49,282 bases of DNA, from NCBI GenBank assembly GCA_013152225.1, contig JAADGR010000329.1:1-49282 (forward strand), written 5' to 3'. Position 1 is the first letter of the stretch, and each line of letters opens with the position of its first letter. This stretch comes from Calditrichota bacterium (lineage in GTDB: Bacteria; Zhuqueibacterota; Zhuqueibacteria; Residuimicrobiales; Krinioviventaceae). Below, piece by piece: positions 1,490 to 30,257 of this stretch. The notes beneath the pieces are model-generated. The model saw only the letters and a program-made list of their open reading frames with translations, was not told the origin of the DNA and did no database searches. The translations under genes and the position numbers were made by a program.

Positions 1490-2965
1490 TCAGTCTTTAT
1501 ACGCTTCCAGTATTTTATCAATGATATTTGTGGTGGACATACCTTCTACGCCGGGCAGAAGCGCAATCTCGCCGCCGTAAGCTTCCACAACATGGCGTTC
1601 CTCCTGGTTTATCGTGTCGATGGTGTAATCGCCTCCTTTGGCGTAAATATCGGGATGAAGTTTTTCGATCAACCGGATGGGCGATTCATCATCAAAAATC
1701 ACGACATAATCAATACAGGTCAATGACGTCAGCAATTTTGCACGCTGGGTTTCTTCAACAATGGGACGCAACGGACCCTTGTATTTGCGCACCGAAGCAT
1801 CGCTGTTTAACCCCACGACCAGAATGTCTCCCAATGCTTTCGCTTTTTCCAGATAAAGGATGTGTCCGACGTGCATAATATCATAGCAGCCGTTCGTCCA
1901 AACCACCCGCTTTTTATCGGCCCTGGCTTTATCGACAACGAGTTTCAGACGATCGAGGGTGAGCAGCTTCTCCGCTGTGATCTCGGCATTCAATCGTTGT
2001 TCAAAGCGCACCAACTCTTGCCGGGAAATTTCTGCCAGCCCCGGTTTTGATACGGCCAGACCGGCGCAAATATTTGCAAACCGGCCGGTGTCTATTGAAG
2101 TCAGACCACCGAGTTTCCCGGCCACAACTGCAGCGAGCACGGCCTCCCCGGCGCCGTTGACATCAAAGACCTCCCGTGCCTTTGTTGGAAGATGGCGTGC
2201 CTGTTTGCCGCGTTCAGCAACAGTGATCCCTTCTGCGCCCCGCGTAAGAAAAACCGTTCCGCATTTTAATTCCGATTGAAGCCTTTCGCCAAGTCCGTCG
2301 ATATCCGCATTCCCGTCTCCGATAGCCTGTGCCGCTTCATTTTCATTTGCCGTGATAGCATCAAATCCTTCAAAGAGCAATGTGTTTCGTTCCGAATCAC
2401 CGATGAGCACAAGCTGATTCTTTTCCGCAATTGATTTTAACCGACCAACGAATTTTTCCGTAATGACATTTTCATTCTTGTCAACCAGAATCATCGCGTC
2501 TGCAAGGTGAGCGACGCTTTTTATTTGGGTTAGAATTGCAGCGATGCTATTCTGATCAAGAGGCAGCGGTTGGGGTGTATTCACTCGAAGCACATCCTGC
2601 TTCGGATAGTGCGCACCGACCACAGTGATTCGCGTTTGGCAATTGGTCGTCAGTTCCTTAACCTGAAGAACGGCATCCGTATCGATATTTTTTTCAGCTA
2701 AAATTCGCAACAGTTCCTGGCCGTTCGAATCACCGCCAACGACACCCGCCAAATGGACTTTAAAGCCCAGGTCACTCAACAACATGGCTGCATAGCCGGC
2801 GGCATTGGGGATAAATGTTCGTTCATAACTGTTCACAATCGGGATCGGCCCCTCCGCAGAAACGGCTTCCATTTTCCCGTGAATATATTCGTCAAGATAA
2901 ATATCGCCAACAACAATGACATGCTTGCCGGTGATATTTTTGAACAAGTTTTGCAGACTGGACAT
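1490..2965 (-). CDS. hldE: bifunctional D-beta-D-heptose 7-phosphate kinase / D-beta-D-heptose 1-phosphate adenylyltransferase
   Basis: 491 aa. The N-terminal part is a ribokinase-like sugar kinase (VIVVGDIYLDEY, DVNGAGEA). The C-terminal part is a cytidylyltransferase-like domain (VWTNGCYDIMHVGHILYLEKAK). This two-domain layout is typical of HldE/RfaE. Confidence 0.9.
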   Translation of the reverse strand: MSSLQNLFKNITGKHVIVVGDIYLDEYIHGKMEAVSAEGPIPIVNSYERTFIPNAAGYAAMLLSDLGFKVHLAGVVGGDSNGQELLRILAEKNIDTDAVLQVKELTTNCQTRITVVGAHYPKQDVLRVNTPQPLPLDQNSIAAILTQIKSVAHLADAMILVDKNENVITEKFVGRLKSIAEKNQLVLIGDSERNTLLFEGFDAITANENEAAQAIGDGNADIDGLGERLQSELKCGTVFLTRGAEGITVAERGKQARHLPTKAREVFDVNGAGEAVLAAVVAGKLGGLTSIDTGRFANICAGLAVSKPGLAEISRQELVRFEQRLNAEITAEKLLTLDRLKLVVDKARADKKRVVWTNGCYDIMHVGHILYLEKAKALGDILVVGLNSDASVRKYKGPLRPIVEETQRAKLLTSLTCIDYVVIFDDESPIRLIEKLHPDIYAKGGDYTIDTINQEERHVVEAYGGEIALLPGVEGMSTTNIIDKILEAYKD

Positions 2966-3376
2966 ACTTTTATTAGCGCCTTAATATTTTATTGTAATTT
3001 ATCAATTTATGATGTCTATTTTGAAAACACAATTTTTTCCCCCGGCTTGCACAGGTCTAATGATAATAAATGATATCCAGAATATGATTATGCAAATAAC
3101 TCAGCTAAACATCTTTTCGGCAAGGAATGCGGCCCTTTATGCACCGCATTGTGCAATCCATAAAGGGATTGCACTCCGATGATTATCGTAATCTTACAAT
3201 AGTTGAAACATCTGCATAATCAAATTCCCATCTTCTGCTTGTCATGCAATAAATTTTAAAATTCCCGGAAAAATATAGCAAAACACATCATAGAATGCAA
3301 CAATTTTTCAGGAGGCATCGTAAAAGCTCACTTACGGGTGGTTGTGAAAATTGTGCGGATATAGGGGCTAACCTTT

Positions 3377-3449
3377 GTCATTGCGAGCGAAGCGAAGCAA
3401 TCTGAATGTTTGCTAAGGGGTTGTTCGTCGCTCCGCTCCTCGCGATGAC
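3377..3449. repeat. REP/MITE-like palindromic intergenic element (copy 1)
   Basis: GTCATTGCGAGCGAAGCGAAGCAATC (3377-3402) faces an inverted arm cgctccgctcctcgcgatgac (ending at 3449). The blocks GTCATTGCGAGCGAA and GCGAAGCAATC recur in reverse orientation at 32272-32308. Confidence 0.6.
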
Positions 3450-3625
3450 ATGCTTTTCGACTTGTCGAATTTGTCTTTTATCCATTGGATAATAAATTAC
3501 TGTTTGTGTAAAATCAACAAATTTCTTACATTAACAACCACGATCTACGGGTGCAAAATTCTTCCTGAAATTTTCAGATAATTAGATCACAAATTCCGGC
3601 AATATTCAAGTTAATGGAGAATAAT

Positions 3626-4582
3626 ATGAAATACCTGGTAACAGGCGGAGCTGGTTTTATTGGTTCAAATTTGGCTGAAAAGCTTTTAATGCAAGATGAC
3701 CAGGTTGTCATCCTGGACAATTTCGCAACGGGATTACGGCAGAATGTCCAAGAACTCGTGTCGCTGAAAAAAGACCTTCAGGTTATTGAAGGCGATCTCC
3801 GCGACCTCGAAACATGCAAAAGAGCATGCAAAGGCGTTGATTATGTTCTCCATCAGGGTGCGCTGGGATCGGTGCCGCGCTCGATCGAACACCCGGATGC
3901 AACAAATGAAAATAATGTCAACGGCACTTTGAACATTTTTCTGGCAGCACGAGATGCCGGCGTAAAACGCCTTGTTTTTGCCTCTTCATCGTCGGTTTAT
4001 GGGAATTCAGCCACGCTGCCAAAAGTCGAAACCATGATCCCGAATCCAATTTCGCCTTATGCAGCTTCAAAATATTTTACTGAAATTTACGCACGAATCT
4101 TCAGCGACCTGTATAAAATAGAAATCATTGGCCTGCGATATTTTAATGTTTTCGGAAGACGCCAGGATCCGAATTCCACTTATGCAGCGGTTATACCCAT
4201 TTTTGTAAAAAAACTCATGTCCGACCAGATCCCTGAAATCCACGGTGACGGCATGCAAAGCCGCGACTTTAGCTATGTTGATAATGTCATTGAAGCGAAT
4301 CTTTTGGCTTGTATTGCGCCACAAGCTGCTTGCGGTCAGGTTTTCAACATTGCCTGTGGGGCCAGAATAACCCTCAACGACCTGTACAAAAAGCTTGCTC
4401 AGCTTTTGGGGAAAAATATTGAACCGCGATACGTGGCTCCCCGACCCGGGGACGTCAAGCATTCGCTGGCGGATATTTCAAAAGCCAAATCCCTGCTTGG
4501 CTATTCTCCGAAATATGATGTCTTTGCCGGCCTTGAACGAGCAATCGGCTGGTACAAAAAAAATGCTCCAACCTGGCTATAA
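3626..4582 (+). CDS. NAD-dependent nucleotide-sugar 4-epimerase/dehydratase (extended SDR; WbpP/UDP-GlcA or UDP-GlcNAc 4-epimerase-like)
   Basis: MKYLVTGGAGFIGSNL Rossmann motif, SSSSVYG, and the YAASK catalytic YxxxK. The ORF opens at 3614, but GGAGA at 3617-3621 favours the ATG at 3626. Confidence 0.85.
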   Translation: MKYLVTGGAGFIGSNLAEKLLMQDDQVVILDNFATGLRQNVQELVSLKKDLQVIEGDLRDLETCKRACKGVDYVLHQGALGSVPRSIEHPDATNENNVNGTLNIFLAARDAGVKRLVFASSSSVYGNSATLPKVETMIPNPISPYAASKYFTEIYARIFSDLYKIEIIGLRYFNVFGRRQDPNSTYAAVIPIFVKKLMSDQIPEIHGDGMQSRDFSYVDNVIEANLLACIAPQAACGQVFNIACGARITLNDLYKKLAQLLGKNIEPRYVAPRPGDVKHSLADISKAKSLLGYSPKYDVFAGLERAIGWYKKNAPTWL

Positions 4583-20725: not shown

Positions 20726-22537
20726 TTGACCAGAAATATTCCGGCTGAAAGCATAGAACAAGTCCGACTTGCAAGCGATATCGTTGACGTTGTATCCGGT
20801 TATTTAACCTTGCAGAAAAGAGGGCGTAATTACTTCGGCCTGTGCCCGTTTCACCAGGAAAAGACGCCATCCTTTAGTGTAAATCCTGAGATGCAGATTT
20901 TTCATTGTTTTGGCTGTGGCGCCGGCGGCAATGTATTCACATTTATTATGAAAATGGAAGGCGTTACATTTCCCGAAGCCGTAAAACTTTTGGCCCAAGC
21001 AGCCGGCATAGTTTTACCGGAAGATAGTGAGGATATCGATCAGTATCGGGAAAAGGAAGCGCTTTTTTATGTCAACAAGCTTGCAAATGAATTCTTTCTG
21101 CATAACTTACAAAAAGCAAAAGAGGCTCAGGAAGCCCGCGATTATTTGCAGAACAGAGGGATTCTTTCCCAAATGTATGCACAATTTGATCTGGGCTACG
21201 CCTTGAACAGATGGGATGGGCTGCTTAATCACGCCAAAACAAAATCCATCAAACCGGAGATATTGTTAAAAGCCGGACTTGTCATTCAAAAAGAGGCAAG
21301 TCGATATTATGATCGTTTCCGCGGCAGAATTACTTTTTCAATTCGCAATTTAAGCAACCAAATTATTGGTTTTGGCGCGCGGAGACTCGCTGATGATGAT
21401 TCACCGAAATACATCAATACGCCGGAAACGGAAATTTACCAAAAAAGATTTATTTTATATGGTTTGCATACAGCGCGTGAATCCATCCGCCGGGAAAATA
21501 AAATCATCATTGTCGAAGGTTACACAGACTTTATTAGTCTGAATAATGCAGGAATTAAAAATGTCATCGCCACATCAGGCACTGCCCTGACGGAAGAGCA
21601 TGCGCGACTCATGCGTAGATATACTTCAAACGCTATTGTAATGTATGACAGCGATTCTGCCGGCGCTGCGGCTGCGATGCGTGGAGCGGATATCCTTTTG
21701 GAAAATGGATTCGAAATTAAAATATGCACTTTACCAAATGGACAGGACCCGGATGAATTTGTTCGTACCCATAGCGAGGTGCAAGTGAAGGAAATCCTTG
21801 AGGCGGCAGCACCTCTCATCGATCACAAACTTCAAGTTTTGCAAAAAGATGATTTGTTGCAAACAGTTAATCAACGTACTTCCGCAACACGGGAATTGCT
21901 CGCTTCCATCGCAAAGATCGGTGATCAAATCCAGCGTGCTTATCTGGTTCGGGACCTGGCAAAAAAATTGCATATCGAAGAATCGGCTCTTTGGAATGAG
22001 CTTGAAAAACAAAGCAAGAAAACACGGTTTACGCCAAAAACAGACGCAGCACCTCGGGACAGCACAATTTCAGCAAACAAGTTTTTCCAATCCAAAAAGG
22101 GTGCCGCTGAATTGGCACTTTTGGAAATGGCCGTACTCGATCCCGATTTGATTCCCCGGATTTTGCAAAACGTTCATCACGATGATTTTTCACATCCGGA
22201 AATTCGCAGGTTTTTCCAACTTGTCGATTCTTCCGAATTTGATCCGCTCTCCTTCTCACCGGAAAATTATATTGCCACGATTCAGGACGCCTCCATCGCC
22301 TCTCATCTTTCCGACTCGTTCTCGGAAAAATCTTTTGCCTCATTTTCATGGAAATATGCTTCCGATTGCATTATATCCTTGCAACTCGTCCAAATTGATG
22401 AAGAAATTGAACGGATACGCGAAGAAATTCGACAACAAAATAAACAATCAAAAAACACTTCATCACTCGTTCATCAATTTCAGCAACTGCTCGAACAAAA
22501 AAAGTTAGTTTCCAAAGGTGAGTTTATTATATCATAA
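20726..22537 (+). CDS. dnaG: DNA primase
   Basis: 603 aa with a TTG start. It has the zinc ribbon CPFHQEKTPSFSV...FHCFGCGAGG, a TOPRIM region IIVEGYTDFISL...MYDSDSAG, and a C-terminal helical domain. Confidence 0.9.
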   Translation: MTRNIPAESIEQVRLASDIVDVVSGYLTLQKRGRNYFGLCPFHQEKTPSFSVNPEMQIFHCFGCGAGGNVFTFIMKMEGVTFPEAVKLLAQAAGIVLPEDSEDIDQYREKEALFYVNKLANEFFLHNLQKAKEAQEARDYLQNRGILSQMYAQFDLGYALNRWDGLLNHAKTKSIKPEILLKAGLVIQKEASRYYDRFRGRITFSIRNLSNQIIGFGARRLADDDSPKYINTPETEIYQKRFILYGLHTARESIRRENKIIIVEGYTDFISLNNAGIKNVIATSGTALTEEHARLMRRYTSNAIVMYDSDSAGAAAAMRGADILLENGFEIKICTLPNGQDPDEFVRTHSEVQVKEILEAAAPLIDHKLQVLQKDDLLQTVNQRTSATRELLASIAKIGDQIQRAYLVRDLAKKLHIEESALWNELEKQSKKTRFTPKTDAAPRDSTISANKFFQSKKGAAELALLEMAVLDPDLIPRILQNVHHDDFSHPEIRRFFQLVDSSEFDPLSFSPENYIATIQDASIASHLSDSFSEKSFASFSWKYASDCIISLQLVQIDEEIERIREEIRQQNKQSKNTSSLVHQFQQLLEQKKLVSKGEFIIS

Positions 22538-22583
22538 AGTACTTTTTAAAACGCACTTTTTTACGATTAAAAGGTCATAATTG

Positions 22584-22612
22584 TTGACATTTCAAAATTA
22601 ATTCAATATATT
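22584..22612 (+). promoter_or_regulatory. sigma70-type promoter candidate for the repeat-protein gene
   Basis: TTGACA (22584-22589), a 17-nt spacer, then TATATT (22607-22612). This predicts a leader of roughly 205 nt. Confidence 0.45.
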
Positions 22613-22826
22613 AAGAAAATAATTCACAGCAACTACAACAAGAACAGGATTCAGCACCCAAAAACTAGCACAGGGAGGTTGAAGGGAAAGCTCACAACAC
22701 ACAATTTCAGGCATCAAGATGTATCTGCTAATGTGCTAATAAATTATTTTCTAATTTAAAAGCACGTAAATACCCTACGTCGAACAAAGATCATGTCAGT
22801 TCATATTCTATGAAAGGAGAATTGAC

Positions 22827-23498
22827 ATGAAGAAAGCATTTTCATTTATCGCAGTAGGGATTACTTACATTTGTATCGCATTTGGTTTTTCGTGGGCTGA
22901 TAATGCTGGTTTGTTAGATTCTGCACTTGGTTTTATTGGATTAACCAACAATAACAATGCAGCAAAGTTCTTTGAAAGTAATAATGAAGGGTGGTCGGCA
23001 AGCGGCGTGGCGCTGAGGGCTGAATCAGTTTTTCCATATCAAAAAGTAATTTCTTCCTCTGAAATTATAACTCCAACAACTGTTTTAAATACGGAAAAGG
23101 GTGAGGATCAGTTACTTTGTAACATTCCGGTTCCACCGCCACCGTATCCGGAACCTGACGCTCAACCGGATGTCAGAAATAGCTTGGCCAATATTCCGGT
23201 ACCACCTCCGCCGTACCCGGAACCTGACGCTCAACCGAATGTCAGAAACAGCTTGGCTAATATTCCGGTACCACCTCCGCCGTACCCGGAACCTGGAGCA
23301 CCACCGGATGTCAGAAACAGCTTGGCCAATATTCCGGTACCACCTCCGCCGTACCCGGAACCTGGAGCACCACCGGATGTCAGAAACAGCCTGACCAATA
23401 TTCCGGTACCGCCTCCACCGTACCCGGAACCAGGAGCACCACCGGATGTCAGAAATAGCTTGGCCAATATTCCGGTACCATTGCCTTCATTATCGTAA
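22827..23498 (+). CDS. secreted proline-rich tandem-repeat protein
   Basis: 223 aa. AAAGGAG lies 7 nt before the ATG, and the signal peptide is FIAVGITYICIAFGFSWA. The C-terminal half is 5.3 copies of NIPVPPPPYPEP[DG]A[QP]P[DN]VRNSL[AT]. Confidence 0.7.
   Translation: MKKAFSFIAVGITYICIAFGFSWADNAGLLDSALGFIGLTNNNNAAKFFESNNEGWSASGVALRAESVFPYQKVISSSEIITPTTVLNTEKGEDQLLCNIPVPPPPYPEPDAQPDVRNSLANIPVPPPPYPEPDAQPNVRNSLANIPVPPPPYPEPGAPPDVRNSLANIPVPPPPYPEPGAPPDVRNSLTNIPVPPPPYPEPGAPPDVRNSLANIPVPLPSLS
23121..23489 (+). repeat. 69-nt (23-codon) tandem repeat, 5 full copies plus a partial sixth
   Basis: Copies start at 23121, 23190, 23259, 23328, 23397 and 23466 (partial). Copies 2-5 differ by only a few substitutions. 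Confidence 0.95.
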
Positions 23499-23616
23499 TG
23501 CAGTTTTGCGCTAATATTTGCGTAAAAGATAAAATAATAGTAGCTTTTTTACTTATTTTTCACTATATTTAGTCAAATAGAAATAATTGTTGACGTGATC
23601 TTTGGTTCGAACTGGT

Positions 23617-24465
23617 ATGACAAAAAGCAGATACGAAAAGGCACATTGGGGTACAATATTGAATGCGTGGTTTGCATTTAATGTGTTGATGGTATTTTTG
23701 TCTCGATTTCCCCATATTCCGATGCCCCTGATGAGTTGGATTAATCTATCTCTTTATTTTCTCGCATTTTTGATTACTTTCTTTTTAGTTAAAGAAGATC
23801 AGTTTAATCGGGATATTTATTTGCCTTTTTGTATTCTATTCCTAATTAACAGTTCTATCTTACTTTACATATTTATCGGTGATAATTATCTTATTGGTAA
23901 TAACGAGATTGGATGGTCTATTTATAAACATACTAAGTTAATTTTGGCTTTCTTCTTTGTTTATAGTATCGTTTATTATTCAGCTAAGCATTCTCTTCGT
24001 CCCCAAAATCCATTTCTTCTAATTACGGCAACTATTGCGCTGGTTACTGCAATTTTTATTTTTCACTTTAAAGATTTCCTTTTTGACCCATCATCTTTCT
24101 ATGACAAAAGCTTAGATCGTAAGCTGTTTTTATTTCACTTGTTTCCACCTGTTGCAATCGTTCTCTACGGTTTATTATCTCCACTCTTCAAGCCAAAATA
24201 CGGCATATACTATCATTCTATCATGGTCGTCCTGTTATTCCTCAGTGCACGACAGATATTCATAGATTTGGTAAAATTAAAAAATATTTCCATTTTCGGA
24301 ATTGACCAAATATTTTTGACCATTGCTCTGTTATTTTTGCTCTATTTTTTAGCTCAAAAGCTTAATTTTATTTCTACTCTTACCGGACAAATTTCAAATT
24401 TATTCTCAAATTATGTACGATTCATTGCATATTCCAAATTTAAAATTAGAAACCAGAGATCATAA
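23617..24465 (+). CDS. polytopic (about 8 TM) membrane protein, hypothetical, very AT-rich
   Basis: Hydrophobic segments continue throughout and no recognisable soluble domain is present. The ORF opens at TTG 23602 and the first ATG is at 23617, so the start is uncertain. Confidence 0.6.
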   Translation: MTKSRYEKAHWGTILNAWFAFNVLMVFLSRFPHIPMPLMSWINLSLYFLAFLITFFLVKEDQFNRDIYLPFCILFLINSSILLYIFIGDNYLIGNNEIGWSIYKHTKLILAFFFVYSIVYYSAKHSLRPQNPFLLITATIALVTAIFIFHFKDFLFDPSSFYDKSLDRKLFLFHLFPPVAIVLYGLLSPLFKPKYGIYYHSIMVVLLFLSARQIFIDLVKLKNISIFGIDQIFLTIALLFLLYFLAQKLNFISTLTGQISNLFSNYVRFIAYSKFKIRNQRS

Positions 24466-24712
24466 GGAGTTTGAACATATTGCCACATTGATAAACTACT
24501 TTTATATTAAGAAATTAATGATCATTCCGTTTTTTATTGCCATTGTTTATTTGATAATTTATCTAAGGCCTCCAGCTATTGTGAGTTTGAACTTAATCTC
24601 ATTAGCTGCGGTTATCTTTCTGGTATTGATTTTCTTCACGACAACATATAATCGCAAATTAAGGAGCGGCGGATTTTATATTTCGCCAAAAACCAAACAT
24701 AACAAAACTTAG
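24413..24712 (+). CDS. small membrane protein (2 TM), hypothetical; start uncertain
   Basis: TM helices are MIIPFFIAIVYLIIYL and LISLAAVIFLVLIFF. TAAGGAG at 24463-24469 overlaps the stop of the upstream gene, but the only in-frame starts after it are ATT 24479 and ATG 24518. A frame break from the upstream gene cannot be excluded. Confidence 0.4.
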   Translation: MYDSLHIPNLKLETRDHKEFEHIATLINYFYIKKLMIIPFFIAIVYLIIYLRPPAIVSLNLISLAAVIFLVLIFFTTTYNRKLRSGGFYISPKTKHNKT

Positions 24713-24722
24713 AGAGAGTTAA

Positions 24723-25649
24723 ATGAAACAATCTCAGAGACGTGGACTCGTTTTGGCAGGGAAAAGTCCAGAGATTACACGCGTTCGGAAAGCCGTCAAA
24801 GTGTTCTCGAAGGAACAGGGAAATATTCTTATTTTGGGAGAGATTGGTACAGGACGCAGGTCTCTGGCAGAGAAGTTACATGCCTCAGGCAAATCCAAGG
24901 ACAAGCCTTTTAGTGTGATCGAATGCGGTGCTATCGGAGATACTCTCGATGTTGATTCCGTATTCCCAAACCCAAACAACGGACATGATTCAAAGGAGGT
25001 AATGCTCTTTTCTGCCGGCAAAGGCACTATCTTTTTGAACGGTGTCGACAGATTAAATCCTGACTTGCAAGACAGATTGTACAATTTTCTTGCTACAATT
25101 CCCAAAGACAGTACATTTAATTCCAGAATTGTTGCAGTTGCAGAGCCTTCTCTCGAAAAGAAAGTTCGCGACCACAAATTCCGAGTCGACCTTTTCCATA
25201 AACTGGATGAGTTCCGTATCAATCTTCCGGCAATACGCGAACGCAAGCAGGATATTCCTTTCATTTTTACCTACTTTTTGGAAACATTCTGCGAAGAATT
25301 CGGAAAGCCGATTCCCACGGTTCCTTTTGATGTTTTTGAAGCCATATTAGAGTATGATTGGCCCGGAAACATTGGCGAGCTGCGCAATTGCGTGCGCAAT
25401 CTGGTCATCATGTCCCCGGATGGAGAACTGGTGCCGGACTATCTTCCGTTCAGAGTGCAGCCGAATCCTTTGGAGGCACTGGCCTCTCGCGATCTTCCAT
25501 CAGCCGTTTCGGAAGTCGAACGATTTCTCATTCGTAAAGCTCTGGCCCGATTTGAAGGAAATCAATCCAAAGCCGCGCGTCTTTTACGGGTATCAGAAGC
25601 CGCATTGCGATACAAAATGAAGAAATACGGTCTCCCTTCTTTTAAGTAA
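24723..25649 (+). CDS. receiver-less sigma54-activator-like (bEBP/PspF-type) AAA+ plus Fis-HTH regulator with degenerate ATPase motifs and no GAFTGA-like loop
   Basis: The fold landmarks are conserved: ILILGEIGTGRRSLAEKLH, GTIFLNGVDRL...LQDRLYNFL, FRVDLFHKL, LPAIRERKQDIPF, YDWPGNIGELRN, and the C-terminal HTH SKAARLLRVSEAALRYKMKKYGL. However, the Walker A Lys is Arg (codon 24855-24857), Walker B DE is NG (25038-25043), and no GAFTGA-like sequence is present. Confidence 0.8.
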   Translation: MKQSQRRGLVLAGKSPEITRVRKAVKVFSKEQGNILILGEIGTGRRSLAEKLHASGKSKDKPFSVIECGAIGDTLDVDSVFPNPNNGHDSKEVMLFSAGKGTIFLNGVDRLNPDLQDRLYNFLATIPKDSTFNSRIVAVAEPSLEKKVRDHKFRVDLFHKLDEFRINLPAIRERKQDIPFIFTYFLETFCEEFGKPIPTVPFDVFEAILEYDWPGNIGELRNCVRNLVIMSPDGELVPDYLPFRVQPNPLEALASRDLPSAVSEVERFLIRKALARFEGNQSKAARLLRVSEAALRYKMKKYGLPSFK

Positions 25650-25664
25650 ATCTTCCTCCCTATA

Positions 25665-25697
25665 CATAAAATCCCCGAAATGGGGATTTTATGTTTT
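25665..25697 (+). terminator. strong rho-independent terminator after the regulator gene
   Basis: A perfect 12-bp stem, cataaaatcccc (25665-25676) with ggggattttatg (25682-25693), a gaaat loop, then tttt. Confidence 0.75.
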
Positions 25698-25797
25698 CGG
25701 GAAAAACATCTCATTGTTCCAATTGTGAGCATGAGTTACTTTGTATTTATCCTTCGTGCCTTTCTACCCTACTTTATAATCAATGAATTAAAATTAC

Positions 25798-25831
25798 TTG
25801 ACATTGTGTCATCATATAAATATTATATGAT
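25798..25831 (+). promoter_or_regulatory. sigma70-type promoter candidate with an overlapping 9-3-9 palindrome (operator-like)
   Basis: TTGACA (25798-25803), a 17-nt spacer, then TATTAT (25821-25826). ATCATATAA-ata-TTATATGAT (25811-25831) is a perfect inverted repeat spanning the -10 box. Confidence 0.45.
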
Positions 25832-25912
25832 ATATTTCTGTCTTTTCAAAACCAACTCATTTGATTGGTTGAAATAAATCCATCTATATCTCAATTATTT
25901 TCCGGAGTTGAA

Positions 25913-28345
25913 ATGACTAAATTTAAAAAAGTCCCGGCGGACAAAACAAGATGGCATTGCGATCTTACACAGTTCACATTTAAAACAACTGATGAATTAA
26001 AAAGATTTTCAACTATCCTTGGCCAGGATCGTGCAGTGCGCTCAATCAATGCCGGACTGGATATGAATTATGCGGGATACAATATCTTTGTATCCGGGGC
26101 GTCCGGTACGGGACGAGCGACAACAGTAAAATTGCTTCTTCAACAGCGCAAAAAAGAAAAGGAAACTCCAAAAGATATTTGCTATGTCAACAATTTTAAG
26201 AATCCGGATTTGCCGGTCGTTCTAACTTTTGCTTCGGGACAGGGATGTCAGTTTAAAAACGATATGGAAGCTCTGGTTGATCAGTTACAAAATGTCTTGC
26301 CACAAATCTTTGAAAGCGACAGATACCGTCAAAAACGCGACTCGATAGAAAATAAATTTAATGAGCAGCAAAAGAAAAAGCTGGAAGAATTTGAAAAAAA
26401 AACCGCAAGTAAGCATTTTACTTTGGTACAAATCCAGGTCGGCCCATATACCAAGCCGGATATTTTTCCCGTTATTAAAGATCAACCTATTCCTCTTGAA
26501 CAGTTATCACAACAAGTGCAAGAGGGAACAATCAGCGAAAAAGAAATGGAAAATCTCCTGAAAACCCACGAAGAATTTACGAAAGAGCTGGGCCGAATTT
26601 TCAAAGAAAATCAAAAGATTCAACGCGAAAAAATACAAAAGATCAACAGACTTGATTATGATATGGCAAAACCCGTGATTTCCGATGCGATCAATGAGCT
26701 CAGGGAGAAATATTTGGACGACAAAGTCCATGACTATCTGGATAGTATTGAAGAAAATGTGCTTTTGAACCTCAAATTGTTCCGGGGAACTGTCGATTCA
26801 GGAAAAAGAAAAGACCGAGAGTCCAAGAAATCTTTTTTACCTGATCAGTTTCTGGAATACAGGGTTAATGTCATTGTAGACAACAGGGATGCAAAAGGAG
26901 CGCCGATCATTTTCGAAAACGGGCCGTCTTTTGCGAAACTATTCGGGACAATCGAAAAAGTGGTCGATGCAAAAGGTCAGTGGCGAACGGATTTCACAAA
27001 AATTCGTGCCGGGTCTCTTCTTATGGCGAACGGCGGATTTCTTGTTCTTTACGCCAGGGACGTCCTTGTTGAACAGGGTGTCTGGAACAATTTAAAACGA
27101 AACCTGAAATCCCGTAAAACCGAAATTCAAGGGTACGATCCATTTTTTATGATCTCTGCAACGGCGATAAAACCAGAGCCGATTGATATCGACCTCCAAG
27201 TAATACTCATTGGCGAGCCGGACGTGTATCACTTGCTTTACGAGGCTGACCCGGATTTTAATAAAATCTTTAAAGTGAAAGCCGATTTTGATTATGTAAT
27301 GAAAAATGAAAAGGACAACCTTTTAAAGTATGCCGAGTTCATAAAAAAGATTTGTGATGATGAAAATCTTTTGCCTTTCGACAGGGCCGCTGTCGGAGCT
27401 GTTGCAGAATATGGCGTGCGCCTGGCCGGACGCCAAAACAAAATATCGACTCGATTCAATTATATTGCCGATCTCGTTCGGGAAGCGAGCTATTACGCGC
27501 AAAAAAGCGTGACAAAAATTGTTTTAACCAAACATGTGGATGAGGCGATTTCCGAAAAGATTTTGCGGGTCAATCTTATCGAGGATAAAATCCAGGAAAT
27601 GATAAAAGAAGGAACGATCATGATTGATACCAGGGGAAAGGTGATCGGCCAGGTCAATGGACTGTCCGTGCTGAGTTTGGGGGATTATTCATTCGGAAGG
27701 CCTTCACGGATCACTGCCCAGGTTTCTATCGGGCGAGCAGGAATTATAAACATCGAACGCGAAGTTGCACTCAGCGGGCCCACGCATGATAAAGGCGTTC
27801 TCATCATTGCCGGTTATTTGCGCGGCAAATTTGCTCACGACAAACCTTTGGCAATGAGCGCAAGCATCTGTTTTGAGCAATCATATTCAGGTGTTGACGG
27901 AGACAGCGCTTCTTCCACCGAAGTGTATGCTTTACTGTCCGGCATTGCAGAAATCCCGCTGCGCCAGGACATCGCCGTTACGGGTTCCGTAAATCAAAAG
28001 GGAGAAATCCAGCCTATCGGCGGTGTGAATGAAAAAATTGAAGGCTTTTTCAAAGTTTGTAAAGCTGCCGGTCTAACCGGCTCGCAGGGCGTCATGATCC
28101 CGCGCCAGAATGTAGATGATCTGATGCTCTCAAAAGAGGTTGCTGAATATATAAAAAAGGAAAAGTTTGCAATTTATCCGATCGACACGATTGATCAGGG
28201 AATTGAGTTATTAAGCGGACAGCCTGCCGGAGAGCGTGATGCACAAGGCAAATTTCCACCGGACAGCATTAACGGCAAAGTTGACACAAAACTGGCTGAA
28301 TTTGCCAACAGTTTGAAAAACTTTTCTTCACATGAGATATTTTAA
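25913..28345 (+). CDS. Lon-like protease (LonB/COG1067 lineage, LonC-like): degenerate AAA-like module with a large insertion plus an S16 protease domain
   Basis: GGAG lies 5 nt before ATG 25913 (the ORF opens at 25865). GYNIFVSGASGTGRATT has Arg in place of the Walker A Lys (26114-26116). The Walker B equivalent GGFLVLYARD has Y-A in place of D-E (27050-27055) and lies about 310 aa later, after a charged helical insert. The protease domain has GVDGDSAS (Ser codon 27905-27907) and GGVNEKIEG (Lys codon 28034-28036). Confidence 0.85.
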   Translation: MTKFKKVPADKTRWHCDLTQFTFKTTDELKRFSTILGQDRAVRSINAGLDMNYAGYNIFVSGASGTGRATTVKLLLQQRKKEKETPKDICYVNNFKNPDLPVVLTFASGQGCQFKNDMEALVDQLQNVLPQIFESDRYRQKRDSIENKFNEQQKKKLEEFEKKTASKHFTLVQIQVGPYTKPDIFPVIKDQPIPLEQLSQQVQEGTISEKEMENLLKTHEEFTKELGRIFKENQKIQREKIQKINRLDYDMAKPVISDAINELREKYLDDKVHDYLDSIEENVLLNLKLFRGTVDSGKRKDRESKKSFLPDQFLEYRVNVIVDNRDAKGAPIIFENGPSFAKLFGTIEKVVDAKGQWRTDFTKIRAGSLLMANGGFLVLYARDVLVEQGVWNNLKRNLKSRKTEIQGYDPFFMISATAIKPEPIDIDLQVILIGEPDVYHLLYEADPDFNKIFKVKADFDYVMKNEKDNLLKYAEFIKKICDDENLLPFDRAAVGAVAEYGVRLAGRQNKISTRFNYIADLVREASYYAQKSVTKIVLTKHVDEAISEKILRVNLIEDKIQEMIKEGTIMIDTRGKVIGQVNGLSVLSLGDYSFGRPSRITAQVSIGRAGIINIEREVALSGPTHDKGVLIIAGYLRGKFAHDKPLAMSASICFEQSYSGVDGDSASSTEVYALLSGIAEIPLRQDIAVTGSVNQKGEIQPIGGVNEKIEGFFKVCKAAGLTGSQGVMIPRQNVDDLMLSKEVAEYIKKEKFAIYPIDTIDQGIELLSGQPAGERDAQGKFPPDSINGKVDTKLAEFANSLKNFSSHEIF

Positions 28346-30257
28346 AAAAAGTATTTTTATCGTCGCTGTTTCCATCATCCTCCAATGCGCCGGCTCCAAT
28401 CGCTGGGGCAAAGTGATCGAATGGAAAGACGTCAGTCTTGAAAATCTTCCTTCTGAATCTGATTATCCCGACCAGGGTGCAGTCATTCTTCTTGATGAAG
28501 GAAATCTTGAAATTTTCAAAAGCAGCGGCTTTGCATATTCTTTATTGGAAAGACATCGCATTGTTAAAATATTCAATTCCCGGGGAGTTCACTTTGCAAA
28601 TGTGACGATTCCCTATTCAAGTTCAACAACGGTCTCGAACATCAAAGCAAGAACGATAACCGGCGATGGCCGCATCATTCCTCTGCCGGCAGACCAAATC
28701 TTTGACGTCACACTCTATCCCGGTTTTATTTTTTACAGCGACATAAGGGCGAAACGATTTACCCTGCCCGGTGTTGAAGACGGATGTGTCGTTGAATACG
28801 AGTGGCAAAAGATCGTGAAAAATTTTACCTATTGGGACCAATGGACTTTTCAAAATGAAGCGCCCACCCTCATTTCCCGTTATCATGTTAAAGCCCCCTC
28901 TGAATGGGAAATAAAATGGAAAACAAGGGGTATCGACCTCGAACCCAAAACGGAAAATCTCCCGGATGGCTTTAAACAAGATTATGTTTGGGAGGCAAAA
29001 GATTTGCCGGCGATGAAGCGCGAAGTGGCTATGCCTCCTCCCTCACGCTTGTCTACCGCCATCTTATTTTCCCCGGTTGGAATGACCACCTGGAGCGATG
29101 TTGCAACGTGGTATCATGAACTTTCGGCAGATCGAATAAAGCCGAATGAACAGATAAAAACAGAAGCGGAAAATCTCACCCGGAACTGCCGGACACAGCG
29201 TGAAAAGCTGGAAAAAATTTACCAATTTGTCCGCGACAAAATCCGTTATGTCGCCATTTCAATCGGCATAGGCGGTTATCAGCCTCACTTTGCTACGGAT
29301 GTTCTTCACAACCGCTATGGCGATTGCAAAGACAAGGCAGCTCTCATCGCTGCCATGGCAAAAACACTGGGAATCGACGTTGACCTCGTTCTCATTTCAA
29401 CCTGGCAAAACGGAGAGGTCGACACGACGATCACATCGCACACGCAGTTTAATCATGTCATAGCTTGCGCGCATTTAAATGGCCGCAATGTCTGGATGGA
29501 TGCCACCGAGACGTTTTGCCCCTTCGGCCATCTTCCCTGGTACGATCAGGGAAGGCTGACATTTGTCATTGATCATTCCGGTCAGGGAGAATGGGAAATG
29601 ACGGCAAAAGAAAATACTCCAGCAAATGTCGTCGAAAGGAATTGGAAATTGGAAATTGATTCCACCGGCAGAATTTTGGGCGAATTGAAGACAACAGCCG
29701 GAGGAGCTTACGCGATGCAGTATCGCGAAGAAATTGAAACCATCCCAGAGGAACAAATTGATTCATGGATATTCGCGCCCGTTTTACAAAGATTTCCGAA
29801 ATCCAAATCCCTAAAAGTTTCGCTTCTGAACAGAAAGACGCTGCTAAAACCTTTGACATTCAATGTTGATTTCCGCACTGCACCGGATTCTGAGCAAGTC
29901 TCCTGTTTATTTACAATGGACACTTTTTGCCAATTCGATTGGTACAAAATCTTCGTTTCACCCAGACGAAATTATCCCGTTGCTTTCAAATTTCCCTCAG
30001 CATTTATCGACAGGATTCACATTCATTTTCCCGATTCCTGGAAAATCGAAACAAATATCATCAACGATTCAACATCAAATTCTTTCGGGCATGAAATCAA
30101 TAAAATATCAATAACAGATAATCACGAGATAAACATTTACCGGGAATTTTATCTAAAAAAAACATTCATCGAGCCTTCCGAGTATCAAACTTTTAAAACT
30201 TTTTTAAATGATGTTGCTTTGGCGGACAGGCAATTCCTTCTCTTTAAAAAGTTTTAA
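28332..30257 (+). CDS. exported DUF3857 / transglutaminase-like cysteine protease fold / DUF3858-type protein
   Basis: 641 aa with the signal sequence IFIVAVSIILQCAG. The transglutaminase-core triad context is YGDCKDKAALIAAMAKTLGI (Cys codon 29325-29327), FNHVIA and VWMDATE. The start overlaps the Lon-like gene by 14 nt. Confidence 0.8.
   Translation: MRYFKKSIFIVAVSIILQCAGSNRWGKVIEWKDVSLENLPSESDYPDQGAVILLDEGNLEIFKSSGFAYSLLERHRIVKIFNSRGVHFANVTIPYSSSTTVSNIKARTITGDGRIIPLPADQIFDVTLYPGFIFYSDIRAKRFTLPGVEDGCVVEYEWQKIVKNFTYWDQWTFQNEAPTLISRYHVKAPSEWEIKWKTRGIDLEPKTENLPDGFKQDYVWEAKDLPAMKREVAMPPPSRLSTAILFSPVGMTTWSDVATWYHELSADRIKPNEQIKTEAENLTRNCRTQREKLEKIYQFVRDKIRYVAISIGIGGYQPHFATDVLHNRYGDCKDKAALIAAMAKTLGIDVDLVLISTWQNGEVDTTITSHTQFNHVIACAHLNGRNVWMDATETFCPFGHLPWYDQGRLTFVIDHSGQGEWEMTAKENTPANVVERNWKLEIDSTGRILGELKTTAGGAYAMQYREEIETIPEEQIDSWIFAPVLQRFPKSKSLKVSLLNRKTLLKPLTFNVDFRTAPDSEQVSCLFTMDTFCQFDWYKIFVSPRRNYPVAFKFPSAFIDRIHIHFPDSWKIETNIINDSTSNSFGHEINKISITDNHEINIYREFYLKKTFIEPSEYQTFKTFLNDVALADRQFLLFKKF

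Follow-up and report, generated by a model that had tools for sequence, protein, structure and literature searches.

A stand-alone relative of the bacterial enhancer-binding proteins, probably hydrolysis-deficient and independent of sigma-54 and encoded behind a conserved membrane protein

The 49,282-nt stretch analysed here (contig JAADGR010000329.1 of a Calditrichota bacterium, assembly GCA_013152225.1; hereafter “the window”) encodes at 24723..25649 on the forward strand a 308-aa protein, the regulator, which is a degenerate, stand-alone relative of the bacterial enhancer-binding proteins (bEBPs). We find it probable that this regulator is a sigma-54-independent, non-hydrolysing transcription factor, in which the bEBP AAA+ fold has been kept only as a scaffold next to a Fis-type helix-turn-helix (HTH). 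The original prediction, made from the letters of the DNA alone, had proposed a pseudo-ATPase DNA-binding regulator that is probably independent of sigma-54, and this proposal now has computational support from family-wide loss of the motifs, a ratio of non-synonymous to synonymous substitution rates (omega) of 0.03 and an HTH that is the most conserved part of the protein. The current annotation, “sigma-54-dependent Fis family transcriptional regulator”, is almost certainly wrong as to function.

The regulator consists of an AAA+ core (residues 12-170), a lid (171-249) and an HTH_8 domain (258-304). In Pfam, Sigma54_activat covers residues 12-166 (E 6e-22, 78.5 bits; cut-off 20.2 bits), AAA_lid_14 residues 172-249 and HTH_8 residues 262-302 (E 1.3e-13), while the canonical activators of the same genome score far higher for Sigma54_activat (190-257 bits). 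Many sigma-54 activator models of NCBIfam match the regulator too, albeit over its C-terminal two thirds only and all far under their cut-offs. Since the AAA+ core begins at residue 12 and the upstream open reading frame (ORF) stops at 24712, 10 nt 5' of the ATG, there is no room for an N-terminal domain, in agreement with the earlier claim that a receiver or other N-terminal regulatory domain is lacking; proteins of this family measure ~300-325 aa throughout. The AlphaFold2 model, built with 27 family sequences, is confident (predicted local distance difference test, pLDDT, 86) and low only in the loop that corresponds to the former L1 and in the loop before sensor I. The top Foldseek matches of this model (NtrX, which came first, then FlrC, ZraR, FleQ, PspF and VpsR) are all AAA+ domains of bEBPs.

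Motifs were placed by a residue-by-residue HMMER alignment of the regulator with ZraR (1ojl), its best solved relative by sequence (E 2e-36). Walker A (24837..24860, forward strand) reads GEIGTGRR against GDSGTGKE in ZraR, with Arg in place of Lys at codon 24855-24857. Because ZraR LFGHEKGAFTGADKRREGRF pairs with VFPNPN---NGHDSK-EVML of the regulator, GAFTGA is lost and the L1 loop is shorter by 3-4 residues; this L1 region (24948..25010, forward strand; DVDSVFPNPNNGHDSKEVMLF) also has the lowest pLDDT of the model. At Walker B (25038..25043, forward strand) the canonical Asp-Glu is Asn106-Gly107 (ZraR GTLFLDEIG, regulator GTIFLNGVD), and sensor II is Gly218 (codon 25374..25376, forward strand; WPGNIGEL, where ZraR has WPGNIREL). 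These four losses and their coordinates are as originally described. To them the alignment adds two more: the second Arg finger is Lys160 (25200..25202, forward strand; ZraR RFRQDLYYRLN, regulator KFRVDLFHKLD), and sensor I has lost its Asn (ZraR AAT(H/N), regulator AVAE). The first Arg finger, R154, is retained. FleQ-type cyclic di-GMP binding was also considered; the position that would correspond to Arg185 of FleQ is Glu in the regulator.

This state is not peculiar to the window. When 5.8 billion proteins were searched, the top matches formed a block of ~64 proteins, each 290-325 aa long (E 1e-198 to 1e-46), four of them under the source name “candidate division KSB1”, and below this block the matches jumped to ordinary response-regulator bEBPs of 450-500 aa with at most 35% identity. 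A whole-genome search (E<=1e-50) found a copy of the regulator in 59 of the 121 genomes sampled across the window's phylum, which by the source names would be candidate division KSB1; the search of genome contigs for relatives returned mostly canonical bEBPs, and its only family members were L028 and L029. In a phylogenetic tree, the 87 distinct family sequences formed a single clade against 56 canonical bEBPs, with a support of 1.0 and a stem length of 0.59.

The two sets were then compared column by column. Not one of the 87 family members has GAFTGA, which is present in the eight canonical sequences displayed, the motif not being part of the column count for the canonical set. The Walker B Glu is likewise absent from all 87 (Asn in 48, Gly in 12, Arg in 12, among others) and present in 56/56 canonical proteins; the second Arg finger is found in 0/87 versus 56/56, and the sensor I Asn in 0/87 versus 50/56. 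Since none of the 87 keeps any of these, the sigma-54 contact loop and the hydrolysis residues were therefore lost at the root of the regulator family. Other positions are mixed: the sensor II Arg is kept in 15 family members (56/56 canonical), the Walker A Lys in 49 (Arg in the remaining 38; 56/56 canonical), and the position of the Walker B Asp, Asp in all 56 canonical proteins, is Glu in 47, Asp in 19 and Asn in 12. Judging from these columns, the Walker A Lys-to-Arg and Walker B Asp-to-Asn replacements are later changes of the window's lineage. In the FRxDL motif, 73/87 retain the first Arg, and the P-loop glycines are near-invariant (G39 in 85, G42 in 86 and G44 in 76 of the 87, with Lys or Arg always at position 45), so that a structural role of the loop, or nucleotide binding without hydrolysis, is possible.

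A second, paralogous lineage of stand-alone EBP-like proteins of ~320 aa was observed at four loci of related genomes (L138-L141; genomes G097, G052, G004 and G093). Its members are degenerate as well, with GEAGTEK at Walker A, IIEN at Walker B, the sequence WQGNVKEL and no GAFTGA. The search at E<=1e-50 found no copy of this type in the window's own assembly.

Sequence constraint is distributed in the family quite differently from canonical bEBPs. The ATPase core is more variable in the family than in canonical bEBPs (entropy 1.96 versus 1.36 bits), while the lid (1.25 versus 1.83 bits) and above all the HTH (0.83 versus 1.94 bits; 25494..25634 in the window, forward strand, and, with its invariant residues, the most conserved segment of the family) are less so, although part of the HTH contrast is expected, since paralogues that recognise different DNA targets are pooled in the canonical set. 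The family HTH also departs from the canonical consensus at family-specific positions. This pattern says that the members share one predicted DNA-recognition surface. Compared with L164, a 97%-identical relative that comes from a different metagenome, the window's regulator gene has 69 synonymous and nine non-synonymous differences (synonymous divergence, dS, 0.43; omega 0.03). With an ORF intact in 59/121 genomes, an omega of 0.03 and a conserved lid and HTH, the regulator is thus not a decayed gene. On this evidence it is functional, and its function is predicted to centre on DNA binding and on the lid/HTH half of the protein.

The genome itself is well equipped for sigma-54 transcription. 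Its assembly (4.9 Mb in 533 contigs, 93% complete) encodes rpoN as a 474-aa ORF (C267; Sigma54_DBD, 210 bits), along with 38 full-length and a few truncated canonical Sigma54_activat domains, i.e., about 40 activators. The presence of rpoN, one of the points raised originally, therefore lends no support by itself to sigma-54 independence, and the case for it comes only from the motifs of the regulator and from the promoters. As regards the promoters, the exact sequence TGGCAC-N5-TTGC, of which none had been seen nearby by eye, does not occur anywhere in the 49-kb window; when up to two mismatches are allowed, matches are as many as expected by chance, and the intergenic regions of the module to which the regulator gene belongs contain none. 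The local promoters look sigma-70-like, as had been proposed: the promoter of the module is TTGACA-17-TATATT (22584..22612, forward strand), equivalents of which (TTGACA or TTGATT with TATATT) are kept in relatives, and a second sigma-70-like promoter lies at 25798..25826. A sigma-70-type promoter is thus predicted to drive the three-gene operon.

The gene that lies directly upstream of the regulator encodes a conserved polytopic membrane protein of ~360 aa (23602..24712, forward strand; likely start ATG 23617). In the window it appears as two overlapping ORFs (23602-24465, 287 aa, and 24413-24712, 99 aa), while relatives have a single protein (357-379 aa across the loci); the two ORFs joined align end to end with single proteins of 357-366 aa. 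The cause of the split is a 7-nt tandem duplication, CAAATTT|CAAATTT (24388..24401, forward strand), that frameshifts the gene; alignment with the 97%-identical L164 and L165 showed that both lack the duplication and have an unbroken ORF. The duplication may be either a strain-specific lesion or an assembly error; if it is real, the regulator may be deregulated in the window's genome. Thus the suggestion that control comes from co-transcribed membrane proteins stands in so far as an upstream membrane gene is conserved across the phylum, but what looks like two membrane proteins is one gene. The membrane gene is directly 5' of the regulator gene, on the same strand and with a gap of 5-80 nt, in 24 of 34 loci, and this pairing holds while the identity of the regulators falls from 66% to 41%. 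Homologues sharing words with the membrane protein are few and each is named hypothetical; its AlphaFold2 model has about 10-12 helices, but with a pLDDT of 57.

The first gene of the module (22827..23498, forward strand) encodes a small protein that begins with a hydrophobic anchor and ends in a Pro-rich tail, and precedes the membrane gene in 20 of the 24 loci. Its homologues in relatives share an anchor of the form MKK..F...VG..Y and a C-terminal tail with ..IPPPPYP.. or ..DPMPPP..; the gene of the window is made of six 23-codon units with PPPPYP, while relatives have a single proline-rich tail. Pfam has no match for either partner protein of the regulator, the small protein or the membrane protein. 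It was also observed that the tail of the small protein looks like both a PPxY motif and a polyproline stalling sequence. A further observation concerns location: within the order to which the window belongs, the module or the regulator always lies directly 3' of dnaG (window dnaG, 20726-22537; L025, L114-L119, L028), and in the f2 family of loci the regulator itself directly follows dnaG. The site 3' of dnaG holds rpoD in many bacteria.

A candidate binding site for the regulator lies upstream of the module. In the f4 and f10 families, TCG(C/T)AA-N5-T(G/A)CG (for example GTCGCAAGATTATGCGAC) ends 6-9 nt upstream of the -35 hexamer in 9/9 loci. The window has the dyad CGCA-N6-TACG (TCGTAA-N5-TGCG on the other strand; CGCACTTTTTTACG) at 22552..22565, 18 nt upstream of the -35 box and thus one helical turn further out than in the f4 and f10 loci; the dyad pattern was found only three times in the 49-kb window. 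Over the 300 nt that lie upstream of module starts, the half-site hexamer occurs ~4 times as often as expected (27 observed, 6.5 expected), with a P-value inflated by the relatedness of the loci. The enrichment includes the f2 loci, which have no gene but the regulator in common with the other families. The dyad is a candidate operator for autoregulation from a class-I-like position, which we regard as a good lead and not as a result. On the other hand, the palindrome at 25811-25831, which lies in the promoter of the Lon-like operon and was originally named among the sites at which binding should be assayed, is real (9-3-9) but is not conserved next to the regulator even in the 97%-identical relative, downstream of whose regulator gene it is absent; being also unlike the conserved dyad, it was rejected as the operator of the regulator.

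The transcript of the module contains, in addition, a long-range helix that encloses the small ORF. Its 5' arm (22780..22799, forward strand) lies in the 5' untranslated region (UTR) of the small ORF and pairs with a 3' arm (23590..23610, forward strand) that ends 6 nt before ATG 23617, over the position of a Shine-Dalgarno (SD)-like sequence. The free energy of this helix in the window is -28.9 kcal/mol, a value reached by 0/1000 shuffles, and all seven loci of the window's own family have a longer version (-33 to -36 kcal/mol). In most loci a box, (C)TGTTCG(G/A)G, stands 4-11 nt before the start of the membrane gene; it is the exact complement of GACCCGAACAG, which directly follows the -10 box. 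This places it near the mRNA 5' end, with 24-61 nt between it and the small ORF. The flanks of the helix are wholly different between loci, yet complementary within each locus.

The pairing shows covariation. In a gap-free alignment of 12 loci, the helix has 19 pairs, of which 10 have changed on both sides; 86.8% of its cells are paired versus 33-49% in slid registers, and the covariation score was 0.347 versus 0.142 in shuffles (0/500 shuffles reached 0.347). Relatives from across the phylum (L147-L163) conserve the helix with compensatory changes. Among its mismatches, read on the sense strand, there are 11 of G-U and four of A-C type, which favours RNA over a DNA inverted repeat (an invertible segment) as the origin of the arms, without being decisive; the inverted repeat was set aside on this count. 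Two other readings of the conserved TGTTCGGG box, an operator and the beginning of a coding region, were also weighed and rejected, since it is out of frame in several loci and its partner sequence covaries. Rfam has no match in 22400-26000 at E<=1.

The small polyproline ORF occupies the loop, and the membrane gene's SD-like GAGG/GGG lies under the 3' arm; the simplest reading is that the helix would mask translation of the membrane gene, and given the short gap to the next gene such masking would extend to the regulator; a processing stem for RNase III and protection of the mRNA 5' end are the alternatives. The helix recalls both the Min Jou interaction of MS2, a long-distance RNA pairing that masks a downstream start, and the flanking stems of rRNA operons, which are cut by RNase III, in that distant mRNA segments pair and enclose an ORF. 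A further likeness is a 3' arm over the ribosome-binding region of the next gene; a difference is that the 5' arm of the present helix belongs to the 5' UTR (in most clades to the extreme 5' end of the mRNA), not to an upstream coding region. Two further observations concern the 5' UTR: an SD-like GGAGG or GGGAGG ~130-150 nt upstream of the small ORF is kept in the window's own family (about 22650-22700 in the window; L023, L025, L145, L146, L163), and an outer complementary pair is formed by TATCTGC (about 22722) and GCAGATA (about 23627, within the first codons of the membrane gene). The motif and the pair suggest a more elaborate 5'-UTR structure in this family.

Among known systems, those closest to the regulator are the atypical EBPs that lack GAFTGA and act at sigma-70 promoters, namely TyrR, PhhR, HupR, HsfA, NtrX, VpsR and the NtrC proteins of Rhodobacter and Caulobacter (PMC6158489; bioRxiv 10.1101/2023.06.06.543975). 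In VpsR, Walker B is degenerate too (ND), and the protein works without ATP (PMC6158489). We compared the regulator with Escherichia coli TyrR, Pseudomonas putida PhhR, HupR and NtrC of Rhodobacter capsulatus, Brucella and Caulobacter NtrX, Caulobacter NtrC, Myxococcus xanthus HsfA and Vibrio cholerae VpsR. They share with it a bEBP-type AAA+ domain without GAFTGA and a C-terminal Fis-type HTH, and NtrX is its best structural match. However, the atypical EBPs carry an N-terminal sensory domain (receiver, or ACT/PAS), of which the regulator family has none, and most of them still have the Walker A Lys and some of the hydrolysis machinery, whereas the sensor I Asn, the Walker B Glu and the second Arg finger are missing from every family member. 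Moreover, the family forms its own clade, with sequence identity of only ~25-30% to any of them, and its genes stand behind that of a polytopic membrane protein. On its sequence features we file the regulator family with the atypical EBPs; what would be new in it is the combination of no sensory domain, complete loss of the hydrolysis residues and a conserved operon with a membrane protein.

PspF resembles the regulator in its build, being a stand-alone AAA+ domain plus HTH without a regulatory domain in cis, and is regulated in trans with input from membrane proteins. Unlike the regulator, which has lost these motifs, PspF is an active ATPase with GAFTGA that works at a sigma-54 promoter, and its direct regulator is PspA. 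Neither of the two module partners is a PspA homologue (no Pfam match; the scan covered these two proteins of the window), and the membrane partner of the regulator is an unrelated polytopic protein of ~360 aa. The bEBPs of the ZraR/NtrC class are the best sequence matches of the regulator and have the same fold, lid and HTH_8, but the regulator is without their receiver domain and their defining catalytic and sigma-54-contact residues, R154 excepted. PexR (PMC12754779) was looked at as a parallel and dismissed as not relevant, being a canonical bEBP. A full-text literature search found no description of a stand-alone, membrane-partnered EBP family of this kind.

How such a protein would work can be outlined as follows. 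The AAA+ scaffold would serve oligomerisation, the binding of a partner or ligand, or both, and the HTH would recognise, a short distance upstream of its own operon's -35 box, the dyad TCG(C/T)AA-N5-T(G/A)CG. From this class-I-like position the regulator would activate transcription or regulate itself together with sigma-70 RNA polymerase, in the manner of TyrR, NtrX and VpsR. Without a sensory domain in cis, the regulator would depend on the membrane partner to set its activity in trans, e.g., through sequestration at the membrane, a logic similar to that of PspF-PspA-PspBC. The long-range mRNA helix would additionally gate expression of the membrane gene and of the regulator gene coupled to it.

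Several observations weigh against this outline. The seven f2 loci and L136 have no membrane gene, so that the partner is not obligatory and can be lost. The f14 and f23 clades have no clear dyad, and elsewhere the operator is assigned from position and enrichment only, in loci that are phylogenetically non-independent. A contact between the regulator and the membrane protein is putative, and the fold model of the latter is poor. The Walker A Lys persists in about half of the family, and in three quarters the Walker B Asp position is acidic; some of these members may bind nucleotide, as the ancestor may have done without hydrolysing it. Finally, with rpoN and about 40 canonical bEBPs in the genome, an indirect link to sigma-54 regulation may exist.

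The point on nucleotide binding leads to an explanation which is compatible with the outline above and to which we give a limited share of our confidence, namely that the regulator is a nucleotide-binding switch: ATP, ADP or another nucleotide-like ligand in the P-loop would drive oligomerisation without hydrolysis, as reported for R. capsulatus NtrC and TyrR, and the membrane partner would be secondary. R. capsulatus NtrC must bind ATP but need not hydrolyse it (cited in bioRxiv 10.1101/2023.06.06.543975). The near-invariant P-loop glycines, the basic residue always present at position 45 and the Asp or Glu at the first Walker B position in 66/87 members speak for such a switch; yet the protein of the window has Arg for the Walker A Lys and Asn for the Walker B Asp, the sensor II Arg is gone in 72/87, and the ATPase core is the least constrained domain. 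More improbable in our view is that the regulator serves as a poison or modulator subunit, which would damp sigma-54 transcription by entering assemblies of some of the canonical bEBPs or by sitting on their enhancers, an anti-activator and not a sigma-70 factor. Such a role would fit a genome with rpoN and many canonical bEBPs, and a protein whose AAA+ fold and lid are intact and whose first FRxDL Arg is kept in 73/87; mixed bEBP rings are known, e.g., FleQ/FleT in Rhodobacter and HrpR/HrpS. It fits poorly with the HTH, whose top conservation and family-specific positions argue for a DNA target of its own, with the loss of the second Arg finger, which acts in trans at the ring interface, in every member, and with a conserved partner that is a membrane protein and not a bEBP.

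We consider it very improbable that the regulator is still a sigma-54 activator working through an unconventional contact surface. rpoN is present and the Pfam gathering threshold of Sigma54_activat is passed, but the protein has no GAFTGA, catalytic Glu, second Arg finger or sensor II Arg, and no -24/-12 promoter lies near the module; no characterised relative without GAFTGA is known to activate sigma-54. Least credible of all is a decaying pseudogene, a relic bEBP without function. Many catalytic residues have indeed gone and the neighbouring membrane gene is frameshifted in the assembly, yet the intact ORFs, the omega of 0.03, the highly conserved lid and HTH and the confident AlphaFold2 model effectively refute it. 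The sigma-54-independent, non-hydrolysing transcription factor is accordingly the reading that we retain as probable.

Only a few atypical EBPs without GAFTGA are known, from proteobacteria, and all have a sensory domain. A hydrolysis-dead, domain-minimal EBP that purifying selection has kept for long in an uncultured phylum would be a case of the AAA+ motor recycled as a passive regulatory scaffold, and its obligate-looking membrane partner a possible route for signals to a factor without a sensor. The RNA helix and the candidate operator are concrete elements that can be mutated, and the helix with its polyproline ORF adds potential if the two form a coupled control device. More speculatively, and with doubts that outweigh our confidence, the three genes and their mRNA might constitute an undescribed envelope-to-transcription signalling module of KSB1, in which a membrane sensor and a polyproline anchor would control in trans a pseudo-ATPase EBP acting at sigma-70 promoters and the helix would couple synthesis of sensor and regulator to translation of the small ORF; in that case the helix might also report polyproline- and EF-P-dependent translation.

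The module ends at a terminator-like hairpin, AAAATCCCC-GAAAT-GGGGATTTT, which is followed by a T-rich run (25668..25690, forward strand). The hairpin, read from the sequence after a consensus scan had missed it, is kept in L164 and L165, and synteny with them ends about 150 nt beyond it. The genes 3' of the regulator are not conserved, the operon of a Lon-like protease and a transglutaminase being missing beside the regulator of the 97%-identical relative. In the window, 25865-30257 encodes a LonC-like protease (AAA_32, LonB lid and Lon_C, with GASGTGR at Walker A) and then a DUF3857/transglutaminase-core protein, neither of which adjoins the regulator in L164. In L166 (71% identity; 2369-4306), a DUF3857 protein directly follows the regulator, with no protease between them.

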